Shown piece after piece: positions 4,268 to 24,876 of a stretch of 43,851 nucleotides of DNA. Position numbers and translations under genes: made by a program. Within the stretch, counting starts at the first letter, position 1. Each line of letters opens with the position of its first letter. This DNA comes from a virus (taxonomy: Duplodnaviria > Heunggongvirae > Uroviricota > Caudoviricetes). The notes beneath the pieces were generated by a model. It saw nothing but the letters and a program-made list of their open reading frames with translations. It was not told the origin of the DNA and made no database searches. The stretch lies in IMG/VR virus record IMGVR_UViG_2531839640_000007; one strand, written 5' to 3'.

Positions 4268-4579
4268 TCATCGTTCCTTAAAGACGCCGTTTAACATGCC
4301 GATTGCCAGGCTTAAATGAGTCGGTGTGAATCCCATCAGCGTTACCGTTTCGCGGTGCTTCTTCAGTACGCTACGGCAAATGTCATCGACGTTTTTATCC
4401 GGAAACTGCTGTCTGGCTTTTTTGATTTCAGAATTAGCCTGACGGGCAATGCTGCGAAGGGCGTTTTCCTGCTGAGGTGTCATTGAACAAGTCCCATGTC
4501 GGCAAGCATAAGCACACAGAATATGAAGCCCGCTGCCAGAAAAATGCATTCCGTGGTTGTCATACCTGGTCTCTCTCAT
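4268..4579 (-). CDS. Small early-left hypothetical protein (lambda orf61 region); true start probably internal (MTPQQENALRSIARQ..., about 71 aa)
   Basis: ORF in pL operon orientation overlapping orf63 start; N-terminal 30 residues look non-protein-like. Confidence 0.45.
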   Translation of the reverse strand: MRETRYDNHGMHFSGSGLHILCAYACRHGTCSMTPQQENALRSIARQANSEIKKARQQFPDKNVDDICRSVLKKHRETVTLMGFTPTHLSLAIGMLNGVFKER

Positions 4580-4751
4580 CTGCTTCTGCTTTCGCCACCA
4601 TCATTTCCAGCTTTTGTGAAAGGGATGCGGCTAACGTATGAAATTCTTCGTCTGTTTCTACTGGTATTGGCACAAACCTGACTCCATTTTGAGCGAGGCT
4701 ATGTGCCATCTCGATACTCGTTCTTAACTCAACGGGAGATGCTTTGTGCAT
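4560..4751 (-). CDS. Lambda orf63-like protein, 63 aa
   Basis: Size, position and overlap pattern identical to lambda orf63 immediately upstream of orf60a. Confidence 0.7.
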   Translation of the reverse strand: MHKASPVELRTSIEMAHSLAQNGVRFVPIPVETDEEFHTLAASLSQKLEMMVAKAEADERDQV

Positions 4752-4912
4752 ACAGCTCCCCGTTTATTATTTATCTCCTCAGCCAGCCGCTGTGCTTTCA
4801 GGGGATTTCGGATAACAGAAAGGCCGGGAAATACCCAGCCTCGCTTCGTAACGGAGTAGACGAAAGTGATCGTGCCTACCCGGATATTATCGTGAGGATG
4901 CTTCATCGCCAT
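4724..4912 (-). CDS. Lambda orf60a-like protein, 62 aa
   Basis: Position directly upstream of exo, overlapping its start; sequence recalled as lambda orf60a. Confidence 0.7.
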
Positions 4913-18052: not shown

Positions 18053-18486
18053 GCAGAGTAACTGCGATTATCTTCGCTCTGGTTATCTGCATCATCGTCT
18101 GCCTGTCATGGGCTGTTAATCATTACCGTGATAACGCCATGACCTACAAAGAACAGCGCGACAAAGCCACATCCATCATCGCTGACATGCAGAAGCGTCA
18201 ACGTGACGTAGCAGAACTCGATGCCAGATATACAAAGGAACTTGCTGATGCTAACGCGACTATCGAAAGTCTCCGTGATGATGTTTCTGCTGGGCGTAAG
18301 CGGCTGCAAGTCGCCGCCTCCTGTGCAAAGTCAAAGACCGGAGCCAGCAGCATGGGCGATGGAGAAAGCCCAAGACTTACAGCAGATGCTGAACTCAATT
18401 ATTACCGTCTCCGAAGTGGAATCGACAGGATAACCGCGCAGGTTAACTACCTGCAGGAGTACATCAGGACGCAATGTCTGAAATAA
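18049..18486 (+). CDS. Rz: Rz i-spanin, about 145 aa
   Basis: N-terminal TM helix, coiled-coil body; overlaps endolysin stop; contains embedded Rz1. Confidence 0.85.
18248..18433 (+). CDS. Rz1: Rz1 o-spanin lipoprotein embedded in +1 frame within Rz, about 61 aa
   Basis: Lipobox LLGVSGC followed by Pro-rich segment; entirely within Rz in alternate frame. Confidence 0.8.
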
Positions 18487-18548
18487 TTTTTTTGCAAATC
18501 ACAAAGTCCATTTAATGAGCCTCGCGATGCGGGGCTTTTTTGCAATAA

Positions 18549-18575
18549 ATGCGTACCGCAACGCATGTTTTTTTT
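18549..18575 (+). terminator. Rho-independent terminator ATGCGT-accgca-ACGCAT then T9 after the lysis cassette
   Basis: Perfect 6-bp stem and 9-nt T-run. Confidence 0.7.
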
Positions 18576-18690
18576 ACACCGAACCTGCCCCTTTGGAATG
18601 GGCCTTTGAGGATACCAGTTAGTGCTGGCGAGCCTCGGTGGGCTGGTTTCCTGTGCGGCAAAGGTTCATTTCAAATGGTAGGTAAACGTT

Positions 18691-19212
18691 ATGAATATCG
18701 TGCCACTTAATTACAAAGGTGAAATTGTCAGTTTCAACACTGATGGTTGGATCAACGTCACAGGTGTTGCTGAGAGATTTGGGAAACGCATTGATAACTG
18801 GATGCGTTTGGCAGAAACGCTTGAATACGTTCGTGCTTTAGACGAAGCGTTGACCGGGAAAGAATCTCAAATTTTACATCCCTCACAATCGAGGTATGTA
18901 AAAACCAGCAAGGCACGAAAGGACAGGGGTGGTGGTACGTGGCTACATCCAAAACTTTCAGTTGCATTTGCCCGTTGGTGTGATGCTCGTTTTGCTGTGT
19001 GGTGCGACCTGCACATTGATAGTCTGCTTCGCGGTGAACTGACTGAGCAGCAGAAATATGAGCAAGCATGTCGCATTCGCGATGACCGGAAATCAAAAGC
19101 CAGCAATGGGGCAAGAGAGATGGCTCGCTGGCGATGGGATAAGCCGGTTATTGAAGCAAATGTTGAGTACTGGCGCGAGCAACTGCAGTTGACTCTCGAT
19201 ATCGCGTGCTGA
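18691..19212 (+). CDS. KilA-N domain protein, 173 aa
   Basis: N-terminal DGWINVTGVAERFGKRIDNWMRLAETLEYVRALDEAL resembles KilA-N/APSES fold; C-terminal half uncharacterised. Confidence 0.55.
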   Translation: MNIVPLNYKGEIVSFNTDGWINVTGVAERFGKRIDNWMRLAETLEYVRALDEALTGKESQILHPSQSRYVKTSKARKDRGGGTWLHPKLSVAFARWCDARFAVWCDLHIDSLLRGELTEQQKYEQACRIRDDRKSKASNGAREMARWRWDKPVIEANVEYWREQLQLTLDIAC

Positions 19213-19561
19213 TGGCAAACGCAAAACTGCGTTATCGAAAAAATCAAAGCATTACTAGAACTGAGCAACGGCTATCCATTACAAAGCCCATCTACGGGTG
19301 GGCTTGATAATGGCTTATACCCTGCACGGGATAACTTAACTGATATCCCTTTTAACGGATAAAGGCATTCAAGCCTGACACATCATGCGCTGTATCGTCG
19401 CCGTATTCCCGTATTAACAGAGACCGTAGCCCGACGGGGAACTCCTTCTGCGCGAGTGTGCGGGAATAATCAAAAACGATGCACACCGGGGTTACCGGGT
19501 ACACATATTTCATCATGCCAGCGAGTCCGGTTCTGGCACGGAAGAAACCGGACGTTATGAT

Positions 19562-19987
19562 TTAGTGCGGAAATATTTGTGTAGTGTTCTGAATGTTCTC
19601 AGTAAAGAGTAATGAATTATCAAAGGTATAGTAATACCTTTTGTTTTCGTGGATATTTGTAATCCATCTGAAAACCCCTGCTGTAGCAAGATTTTTCCTG
19701 TATTCGTAAAATGATAACTCTCCTGATTTGAATCCTTTTAAGGTGGCTTCTATAAGGCATTTATTTTTTGAAAATCTTACATTTACAACCTTACCCTGTC
19801 CTTTTATTAAAACCGTATTATCGTTTTCAAGAACAAGATGAATATTCTCTGTAGCTAAATAGTAAATGTAATGTGAGACATTGTGACGTTTTAGTTCAGA
19901 ATAAAACCAGTGATAGTTTAAATTATTTCGCACTTTATCGAATATTTGTTTAAAAATGGCAACCTGAGCCATTGTAGTACCTTCCAT
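19562..19987 (-). CDS. DUF1398-family protein (YbcV/YdfO-like), about 136-141 aa, AT-rich
   Basis: Sequence recalled as YbcV/YdfO family ([37 protein letters not shown]...); start codon uncertain. Confidence 0.65.
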
Positions 19988-20028
19988 GTGATATGAGGGG
20001 CGTAGTCTGCACGATTATCTAAATTGCT

Positions 20029-20262
20029 TCAATCTGGTCTGATCTGTTTTCTGAGCAATTCAGTAATGTCACTCTTTTCTTTGTTTGCTTCAGGAGAAAC
20101 TCTTTTTTCTGAGCACAGTCTCCGGCGGCAGGCTTCAATGACCCAGGCTGAGAAATTCCCGGACCCTTTTTGATCAAGAGCGATGTTAATTTGTTCAATC
20201 ATTTGGTTAGGAAAGCGGATGTTGCGGATTGTTGTTCTGCGGGTTCTGTTCTTCGTTGACAT
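20029..20262 (-). CDS. YlcI/YnfO-like small protein, 77 aa, with probable ribbon-helix-helix fold
   Basis: TIRNIRFPNQMIEQINIALDQKGSGNFSAWVIEACRRRL resembles RHH DNA-binding motif; upstream and co-oriented with DUF1398 gene. Confidence 0.55.
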   Translation of the reverse strand: MSTKNRTRRTTIRNIRFPNQMIEQINIALDQKGSGNFSAWVIEACRRRLCSEKRVSPEANKEKSDITELLRKQIRPD

Positions 20263-20449
20263 GAGGTTGTCCCGTATTTAGTGTCGCTGATTTGTATTGT
20301 CTGAAGTTGTTTTTACGTTAAGTTGATGCAGATCAATTAATATGATACCTGCGTCATAATTGATTATTTGACGTGGTTTGATGGCGTAGATGCACGTTGT
20401 GACATGCAGATGATAATTATTATCATTTTGCGGGTCCTTTCCGGCGATC

Positions 20450-20473
20450 CGACAGGTTACGGGGCGGCGACCT
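20450..20473. other. cos: cos site: lambda right-end sequence ...CGACAGGTTACG joined to 12-nt cohesive end GGGCGGCGACCT
   Basis: Exact lambda cohesive-end sequence at 20462-20473 followed by lambda left-arm leader to Nu1. Confidence 0.9.
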
Positions 20474-20650
20474 CGCGGGTTTTCGCTATTTATGAAAATT
20501 TTCCGGTTTAAGGCGTTTCCGTTCTTCTTCGTCATAACTTAATGTTTTTATTTAAAATACCCTCTGAAAAGAAAGGAAGCGACAGGTGCTGAAAGCGAGC
20601 TTTTTGGCCTCTGTCGTTTCCTTTCTCTGTTTTTGTCCGTGGAATGAACA

Positions 20651-21170
20651 ATGGAAGTCAACAAAAAGCAGCTGGCTGACATTTTCGGTGCGAGTATCCG
20701 TACCATTCAGAACTGGCAGGAACAGGGAATGCCCGTTCTGCGAGGCGGTGGCAAGGGTAATGAGGTGCTTTATGACTCTGCCGCCGTCATAAAATGGTAT
20801 GCCGAAAGGGATGCTGAAATTGAGAACGAAAAGCTGCGCCGGGAGGTTGAAGAACTGCGGCAGGCCAGCGAGGCAGATCTCCAGCCAGGAACTATTGAGT
20901 ACGAACGCCATCGACTTACGCGTGCGCAGGCCGACGCACAGGAACTGAAGAATGCCAGAGACTCCGCTGAAGTGGTGGAAACCGCATTCTGTACTTTCGT
21001 GTTGTCGCGGATCGCAGGTGAAATTGCCAGTATTCTCGACGGGCTCCCCCTGTCGGTGCAGCGGCGTTTTCCGGAACTGGAAAACCGACATGTTGATTTC
21101 CTGAAACGGGATATTATCAAAGCCATGAACAAAGCAGCCGCGCTGGATGAACTGATACCGGGGTTGCTGA

Positions 21171-21196
<26 letters not shown>
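20651..21196 (+). CDS. nu1: Terminase small subunit Nu1, 181 aa
   Basis: Protein recognised as lambda Nu1 (MEVNKKQLADIFGASIRTIQNWQEQGMPVLRGGGKGNEVLYD...). Confidence 0.97.

Positions 21197-24876
<3,680 letters not shown>

Follow-up and report, generated by a model that had tools for sequence, protein, structure and literature searches.

A strictly positioned small gene and its exchangeable DUF1398 neighbour beside cos in a lambda-like prophage of Escherichia coli

Two neighbouring genes of a lambda-like prophage are considered here. They lie at positions 19,562 to 20,262 of IMG/VR record IMGVR_UViG_2531839640_000007, a stretch of 43,851 nucleotides of Caudoviricetes DNA that is referred to as the window and that, over the stretch concerned, is 100% identical to a prophage in the chromosome of Escherichia coli NCCP15648. 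The gene closest to the cohesive-end site cos encodes a small basic protein of the YlcI/YnfO family, and the gene that follows it on the same strand encodes a protein of the DUF1398 family. A preliminary description of this DNA had proposed that the two form a coupled unit, either a regulator with its effector or an antitoxin with its toxin. Comparison with related loci leads to a different view. We consider it probable, although by no means certain, that these are two independent prophage accessory genes, one a conserved boundary gene for a DNA-binding protein and the other a swappable moron. The small gene is under strong purifying selection and always occupies the same position next to the packaging module, and the DUF1398 gene is missing from most of the loci in which the small gene is found.

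In the explanation that we favour, both genes would sit in the variable moron slot that extends from the lysis genes to cos and would be transcribed leftward, in opposition to the late operon. The small gene would be the boundary gene of this slot, its core being a very basic and probably ribbon-helix-helix (RHH) DNA-binding domain kept under strong purifying selection. Its product would most likely be made in the lysogen, where it may (auto)regulate leftward transcription from the cos-proximal interval into any cargo located downstream. DUF1398 would be one of several alternative cargo genes, coding for a soluble basic protein that is dispensable for lambda growth, and the DUF1398 genes of E. 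coli K-12 would be under host control, by PdhR and probably by H-NS, without any need of the small protein.

Identity of the two genes

As first described, two minus-strand open reading frames (ORFs) occupy positions 20029-20262 (77 amino acids, aa) and 19562-19987 (141 aa), and judged from their sequences both are genuine genes rather than chance ORFs. The features on which the argument depends are the following, with window coordinates and strand.

20029..20262 (-): ylcI/ynfO-type gene, DUF3950, YlcI/YnfO family; 77 aa, very basic, isoelectric point (pI) 10.6
20113..20262 (-): codons 1-50 of the small gene, forming its conserved core; basic N-terminal arm, putative beta-strand RNIRFP and two predicted helices; candidate RHH domain
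20029..20112 (-): variable C-terminal tail of the small gene, codons 51-77 and stop; 'CSEKRV...' type
19562..19972 (-): DUF1398 gene of the YdfO/YbcV/YcgX family; 136 aa if begun at the second ATG, the probable start (as called mechanically, the ORF reaches 19987 and has 141 aa)
19973..20028 (-): 56-bp spacer that separates the small gene from the DUF1398 gene; holds the GGAAGG ribosome-binding site of the latter
20032..20048 (-): PdhR-box-like 17-mer AACAGATCAGACCAGAT, overlapping the final codons of the small gene; 9/14 against the consensus
20263..20461 (no strand): 199-bp interval from the small-gene ATG to cosN; retained along with that gene throughout the lambda-cos-type phages (nine locus types aligned)
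20462..20473 (+): cosN cohesive-end sequence GGGCGGCGACCT; equals lambda positions 1-12 and matches the termini of the lambda record
20651..21196 (+): Nu1, small terminase subunit (PF07471, E-value (E) 2.5e-100); diverges from the small gene

The family assignments proposed at the outset are borne out by profile matches above the respective cutoffs. The 77-aa ORF matches PF13132 (DUF3950; E 5.3e-21, 74.7 bits, cutoff 25), NCBIfam NF041551 YlcI_YnfO_N (35.7 bits, cutoff 30) and phrog_949 (E 8.8e-33), and its product is 100% identical to RefSeq WP_000105084.1, annotated as 'YlcI/YnfO family protein'. This protein is predicted to be soluble, with no hydrophobic segment, and its core is even more basic (pI 11.5) than the whole. 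The 141-aa ORF matches PF07166 (DUF1398; E 3.3e-43, 147 bits, cutoff 22) over profile positions 1-119 of 119, and 13 out of 13 diverse members of the family match the same profile. It aligns end to end with PDB 2HH8, the structure of E. coli YdfO (E 1.4e-69, residues 1-140), which is also the sole match of the DUF1398 family profile in the PDB. Identity of the protein is about 80% to E. coli YdfO and 44% to K-12 YcgX. Translation of this gene probably begins at the second ATG (19972), which gives 136 aa: a GGAAGG Shine-Dalgarno sequence lies just 5' of this codon, and RefSeq gives 136 aa for the gene in the 100%-identical E. coli chromosome. Both families are thus catalogued, and the statement that neither gene has an established function holds.

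The position of the pair in AT-rich DNA immediately left of cos is also confirmed. G+C content is 0.31 in the DUF1398 gene and 0.44 in the small gene, against 0.51 for the whole window, and the ATG of the small gene is located exactly 200 bp from cosN. The start codons of the small gene and of Nu1 are 388 bp apart, the same distance as in the K-12 prophages DLP12 and Qin.

The small gene is selected as a protein and holds a fixed position

The N-terminal 50 residues of the small protein are near-invariant across all tail variants, while the C-terminal tail is hypervariable. Among 305 viral loci, core codons 1-50 occur in 60 distinct nucleotide versions with identity as low as 79%. In these 60 sequences the variable columns are distributed over the three codon positions as 12/11/39, with a synonymous polymorphism (pS) of 0.44 and a nonsynonymous polymorphism (pN) of 0.045 (pN/pS 0.10). 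This low ratio and the dominance of third-position variation constitute codon-position evidence that the core is selected as a protein. The CSEKRV tail occurs in few variants and has a pN/pS of 0.14, a value resting on 7 variable columns. The corresponding figures for the DUF1398 gene are 36/18/61 and 0.34.

In every locus collected, the core is the gene nearest to the packaging module and is oriented away from it. This position rule holds although the upstream neighbour differs between loci: it can be lambda Nu1, one of three divergent kinds of Nu1, or an HNH endonuclease followed by a Terminase_2 small subunit. Five small-terminase contexts therefore adjoin the same 150-bp core (window 20113-20262 and loci L004-L403). 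Moreover, tail type and terminase type assort independently, which indicates recombination joints on both sides of the 150-bp core. When nine locus types are aligned, those of the lambda-cos kind share a single conserved block comprising the core, the 199-bp interval and cosN, and homology is lost on the cosB/Nu1 side. In HNH-type loci, the shared sequence begins only at the ATG of the small gene, with none upstream of it, which places the conservation on the protein and not on an adjacent cis site. The core was found in 4184 of 5426 complete E. coli genomes, at 9861 places. Altogether, few accessory genes of lambdoid phages are as tightly conserved and as rigidly positioned as the small gene.

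Predicted fold of the small protein

The preliminary description had also suggested an RHH fold for the 77-aa protein. The proposal is plausible in view of two helices predicted after the basic N-terminus. In the AlphaFold model, built from 29 sequences with a mean predicted local distance difference test score (pLDDT) of 68.6, these helices span residues 19-32 and 34-52, both at pLDDT about 84, and are separated by a one-residue break at a GSG turn. A third helix, residues 58-72, is predicted in the tail. For the basic residues 1-18 the monomer model shows coil, which would be expected if the strand forms only in the dimer. The RNIRFP motif, after which come a helix, a GSG-N-x-S turn and another helix, is in register with the NLRWP/NFRMP strand of the repressors Arc and Mnt; YlcI residues 14-18 correspond to the N-[ILF]-R-[FWM]-P motif, which in Arc and Mnt stands before two helices joined by a G-x-S/N turn. 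There is a parallel in context as well, since Arc and Mnt of the P22 immI region are small (about 50-80 aa) basic proteins encoded in a lambdoid late region that control an accessory transcription unit.

However, several results count against an RHH assignment. The comparison of the YlcI profile with Arc and Mnt by hhalign gave a non-significant probability of 0.8%, the YlcI family profile had no match in the PDB at E up to 10, and a Pfam scan of 29 YlcI members, also at E up to 10, returned no RHH family, with DUF3950 alone recurring. The best PDB match of the small-protein model in Foldseek was the RHH antitoxin ParD2, at an E of 7.4 that is below significance, and the other weak, sub-significant structural matches are likewise mostly RHH antitoxins (MazE4/6/7, RelB, KacA and FitA). 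The Arc/Mnt analogy also differs from our case in that no operator was found at the window locus and no antirepressor-type target is present there. An operator repeat search from the small gene to cos returned only a short AT palindrome, at 20409-20424. An RHH fold is nevertheless plausible and fits the charge of the protein, and the strongly basic core (pI 11.5) would agree with dimerisation through paired strands and with sequence-specific DNA binding.

The two genes are not a fixed pair

To be a coupled unit the two genes should be found together, and the preliminary description named a pairing that is not conserved across prophages as grounds for rejecting its proposal. The pairing is indeed not conserved. 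Small-gene loci were gathered from IMG/VR with five queries of differing tail types, which yielded 282 distinct loci, 258 of them with at least 1.5 kb downstream. In these 258 loci, whose proportions are not population frequencies because the queries were picked by tail type, DUF1398 lies within 100 bp of the small gene in 72, further off in 22 and is absent from 164. Presence depends on the tail. All 72 loci with an adjacent DUF1398 gene have a CSEKRV/CSVKRV tail (CSVKRV being one variant of the type), and this tail type, which is that of the window, is the sole one with an adjacent DUF1398, found within 100 bp in 72/73 loci. The lambda tail type has a more distant DUF1398 in 22/25 loci, and no locus of the tail types ATDATH..., INEK..., STE[RSN]SGMNYIIK, AADIKC... 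or STEKRI... has any. The 164 DUF1398-free loci are those of these other tail types together with three of the lambda type and one of the CSEKRV type. Beyond the small gene, they have as cargo PerC, GnsAB, YbcW, Rha or an opposite-strand TonB_C lipoprotein, or else lead directly into Rz, and a downstream gene in the same orientation is usually lacking altogether.

The same picture emerges from other collections. Among deposited phages, an unbiased collection, the core is present in 154 records and DUF1398 in 43, and the Stx-converting phages among the matches listed carry the core alone. Conversely, DUF1398 occurs without the small gene. The pair region is matched in 4473 of 5426 complete E. 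coli genomes, and DUF1398 is present in 5386 of them, at least 1200 E. coli genomes having DUF1398 with no ylcI core. In K-12, the DUF1398 paralogue ycgX adjoins bluR, outside e14. Furthermore, 20 DUF1398 loci from Kluyvera, Klebsiella, Raoultella, Pseudocitrobacter and Salmonella diarizonae contain no YlcI, packaging or lysis gene within 5 kb. In the Kluyvera-type chromosomal loci (L084, L091 at 4531-4762 on the minus strand, and L099), a conserved 74-aa helical ORF, MLEGYFDLD...RKRLLAVQAALEI..., is found just upstream of DUF1398 on the opposite strand. In all, a search with phmmer of 1.84 billion representatives returned 196 DUF1398 relatives, mostly enterobacterial.

One point speaks against full independence of the genes, namely the co-occurrence of the CSEKRV tail with DUF1398 in all but one of its loci. 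Plain linkage explains this, although a subtype-specific interaction may exist as well.

Layouts in Qin, DLP12 and lambda

Both K-12 precedents invoked for the pairing are real. Qin carries nohA, ynfO (77 aa), a 57-bp spacer and ydfO (136 aa), with the same families, order and strand as the window, where the spacer is 56 bp. In Qin, nohA diverges from ynfO, the two starts being 388 bp apart, and ynfO has the same tail type as the window gene. The two prophages differ in that only a decayed remnant is left of Qin, where tail-fibre genes directly adjoin nohA, whereas the window holds a near-complete lambda-like prophage with a frameshifted gpA, and in that the gene downstream of DUF1398 is gnsB in Qin and a KilA-N gene in the window. 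DLP12 does have both genes, but they are not contiguous: the order is ybcV, ybcW (on the opposite strand), ylcI and nohD.

Lambda has the DLP12 type of layout. A 64-codon ylcI-type ORF with the near-invariant 50-residue core is located at lambda 48109-48303 (locus L001 2742-2936, minus strand), and lambdap78 is its DUF1398 gene. The ylcI-type ORF is unannotated in both NC_001416 and J02459. Lambda and DLP12 resemble the window in the cos-proximal position, in the 50-codon core and in the DUF1398 protein, which is about 76% identical. They differ from it in that about 560 bp with the opposite-strand ybcW/lambdap79 separate the two genes, and in that the tail of the small protein is of another type and shorter (64 aa in total). 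Compared with lambda 47576-48108, the window interval 19972-20029 has no ybcW/lambdap79 insert.

This insert has a known effect. The lambdap79 (ybcW) product activates the Vulcan NADase defence, and lambda-vir escapers drop lambdap79 through recombination with Qin, which gives an insert-free layout like that of the window (bioRxiv 10.64898/2026.09.04.749371). Because lambdap79 triggers Vulcan and escapers lose it, the locus is a site of defence-driven turnover, in which neither of the two genes studied here is implicated.

Expression and regulation

A promoter and terminator scan showed neither gene to be preceded by a minus-strand sigma-70 consensus site, and site counts did not exceed those of shuffled sequences, a result that speaks against the proposed leftward expression. 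We therefore infer transcription in this prophage from the K-12 relatives. The 199-bp interval 20263..20461 must hold the putative leftward promoter of the small gene. On the other strand, a sigma-70-like site at 20399-20426 (+), GTGACA and TATCAT separated by 16 nt (10/12), points toward cos and Nu1, the count of such sites being no higher than in shuffled sequence.

In K-12 RNA-seq data, overlapping convergent transcripts of ybcW and ylcI are seen in at least 50% of samples (PMC12288877), and ylcI is thus transcribed in a cryptic prophage. Expression of the small protein in the lysogen would be in line with this. As for DUF1398, PdhR binds K-12 DNA in the ynfO>ydfO and ybcV/ybcW regions, and ybcV mRNA is down 10-fold in a pdhR mutant (PMC7660256). 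The Qin site AAcaGGTcagACCAgaT, a PdhR binding site by genomic SELEX (systematic evolution of ligands by exponential enrichment; PMC7660256), is the counterpart of AACAGATCAGACCAGAT in the window, and by this analogy the 17-mer at 20032-20048 is a candidate PdhR site. Although the two genes are neighbours on one strand, 56 bp apart, the K-12 data suggest separate control of the DUF1398 gene by PdhR. Overexpression of T4 MotB derepresses ybcV more than 1000-fold, in a study on MotB and H-NS-dependent repression (PMC7827196), and an ionic liquid induces ydfO about 100-fold (PMC4077768).

The DUF1398 gene as a probable moron

The DUF1398 gene has the attributes of a moron: its composition is atypical, it has its own orientation, and most related loci have other cargo in its place. 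It resembles the morons bor and lom in its low G+C content (0.31 against 0.51), in lying antisense to the late operon in what would be a transcription unit of its own, in its presence/absence polymorphism and in its dispensability for lytic growth. In lambda, lambdap78 is non-essential by CRISPR interference (PMC10695390). The protein itself is predicted to be soluble and basic (pI 9.4), with no hydrophobic segment (maximum Kyte-Doolittle value 0.39). The lack of such a segment, the antisense orientation to the late operon and the existence of paralogues outside prophages leave the labels 'head protein' (phrog_413, RefSeq lambda) and 'envelope protein' (lambdap78) unsupported, and these are considered annotation carry-over. 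Structure prediction, proposed earlier as a way to examine the DUF1398-like protein, was carried out, but the AlphaFold model (pLDDT 48) is too poor and the fold search with it was uninformative.

Alternative explanations

DUF1398 could be a lysogenic-conversion or phage-conflict factor, acting in superinfection exclusion, defence or anti-defence, with the small protein as its local repressor only in the Qin-type layout. We hold this to be unlikely. It is true that the slot is shared with conversion genes (bor in lambda; PerC, GnsAB and TonB_C-like lipoproteins elsewhere), that the DUF1398 gene is AT-rich and probably silenced by H-NS, and that ydfO responds strongly to stress, as the ionic-liquid induction exemplifies (PMC4077768). 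Moreover, activation of the Vulcan NADase defence by the neighbouring insert lambdap79/ybcW implies that the locus is under phage-defence selection (bioRxiv 10.64898/2026.09.04.749371). However, in PADLOC-DB 2.0 DUF1398 gives only Csx23, at E 0.025, and the small protein gives nothing; the literature contains nothing tying DUF1398 to defence, and chromosomal paralogues lie far from any prophage. The sole published phenotype, oxidative-stress resistance attributed to YdfO (PMC4077768, citing PMC3105296), is a mis-citation that appears to arise from confusion with yfdO: the cited paper is about YfdK/YfdO/YfdS of CPS-53, and ydfO is absent from its text.

The small protein could instead serve packaging or the cos/terminase junction, as a cos-adjacent DNA-binding factor, as a silencer of terminase in the lysogen or as a guard against satellites, DUF1398 being unrelated cargo. 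The observation that the core always adjoins the packaging initiator, across lambda Nu1, the three divergent Nu1 kinds and the HNH plus Terminase_2 arrangement, is in favour of such a role, as are the invariant 388 bp to the Nu1 start in the window, DLP12 and Qin, and the single conserved block that the core, the cosQ-side interval and cosN form in lambda-cos types. YlcI/YnfO is also listed as accessory in Enterobacter capsid-forming phage-inducible islands that have their own terminase (PMC13612085). On the other side, the gene is oriented away from terminase and runs antisense to the late transcript from which the terminase genes are expressed, and it is kept in cryptic prophages with decayed packaging genes (Qin, DLP12 and the window, with its frameshifted gpA). 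HNH-type phages share nothing upstream of the ATG, and so no common adjacent cis site is evident. Besides, cos was defined by decades of lambda genetics without this ORF. Taken together, these data make a packaging role quite unlikely.

A more far-reaching version, which we regard as a long shot, is that the 50-codon core is an unrecognised and functionally important gene of lambda and of most lambdoid phages, namely a prophage-expressed RHH factor tied to the boundary of the packaging module. Such a core might silence or insulate terminase and cos in the lysogen, or it might hinder satellites or superinfecting phages that use the same cos. The variable tails would then fit different partners, and the CSEKRV tail with DUF1398 would be one such pair.

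A type II toxin-antitoxin (TA) system or a fixed regulator/effector pair, in which an RHH antitoxin or repressor neutralises a DUF1398 toxin through its tail and the operon stabilises the prophage or aborts infection, is very unlikely. In its gene order, with a small basic gene placed first and co-oriented 56 bp from the second, in the sizes of the products and in the combination of a conserved N-terminal domain with a variable C-terminal tail (here with a predicted helix at 58-72), which many antitoxins share, the locus does resemble type II systems with RHH antitoxins such as ParDE, RelBE, CcdAB and mycobacterial MazEF. The near-constant association of the CSEKRV tail with DUF1398 (72/73 loci) and the weak structural matches of the small protein, mostly to RHH antitoxins, point in the same direction. 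In-frame fusions of YnfO-type and YdfO-type sequences, in which the stop has become Trp and a one-base shift is present, also occur in public assemblies (P0133, 233 aa; P0134, 177 aa); P0133 would be in keeping with a functional pair, and both could be genuine fusions or assembly errors.

The coupling of the two genes is nevertheless contradicted by their distribution. Unlike the partners of a TA system, they do not co-occur consistently: the small gene is without DUF1398 in 164/258 loci and in at least 111/154 phage records, most DUF1398-free loci have no co-oriented downstream gene, an opposite-strand gene parts the two in lambda and DLP12, and DUF1398 is found alone in K-12 (ycgX), in five other genera and in the E. 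coli genomes without the ylcI core. DUF1398 also has no match among toxin families. Neither protein matched a toxin or defence profile in Pfam or PADLOC, with 13 DUF1398 members searched, and a match of DUF1398 to HEPN_AbiA_CTD (E 0.014) was rejected, being under the cutoff and present in 1/13 members only. In addition, relatives of DUF1398 have been over-produced and deleted with no reported lethality, which argues indirectly against strong toxicity. YdfO was solved by nuclear magnetic resonance as a single chain, from which we infer that E. coli over-produced it with no YnfO present; viability is also seen for the ASKA over-expression clone of ybcV, with a glycogen phenotype, and so is the Keio ybcV deletion.

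Finally, the reading in which the conserved 150 bp are kept as DNA, either as a recombination linker or as part of cos, with the small ORF incidental, deserves almost no credence: a sharply bounded homology island between freely reassorting flanks does recall the junction sequences proposed in mosaic lambdoid genomes, but a protein that stays near-invariant while nucleotide identity falls to 79%, the codon-position evidence (12/11/39, pN/pS 0.10), on which a conserved DNA linker for the core is rejected, and the coincidence of the homology edge with the ORF start in HNH-type loci are all against it.

Other genes of the region

At window 21171-23095 (+), a frameshift has broken the gene for gpA, the large terminase subunit, into two ORFs (21171-22436 and 22403-23095), and the identical gene of E. 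coli NCCP15648 is marked 'frameshifted' by RefSeq. With this gene frameshifted, the prophage is probably unable to package DNA. Between Rz and the DUF1398 gene lies a gene for a KilA-N domain protein (window 18691-19212, +; PF04383, E 8e-22), at the position held by bor in lambda. This protein has a weak PADLOC match to the candidate system PDC-S22 (E 1.2e-5). Directly 3' of the DUF1398 gene, a 54-aa ORF (window 19352-19516, -) is found in DNA of normal G+C content that is conserved among lambda-like phages; it has no match in Pfam, NCBIfam, PHROGs or PADLOC. Further to the left, between the Q antiterminator and the lysis genes, an OmpC-like porin gene (window 15669-16751, -) is annotated as 'porin OmpC' in the identical RefSeq prophage and is the counterpart of nmpC in DLP12. 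An Rfam scan of 18400-20800 returned nothing meaningful.

Significance

Both families discussed here are already known, identical proteins are present in RefSeq, and the same pair exists in E. coli K-12 and, with an insert, in lambda. What the comparative data add is that the toxin-antitoxin reading of this pair can be set aside, and that a rigidly placed and strongly conserved small gene has been left out of the lambda reference annotation, which constitutes a modest lead. Moreover, because the slot is under phage-defence selection and the lambdap79 insert is missing from this prophage, the layout of the locus may predict sensitivity to Vulcan.

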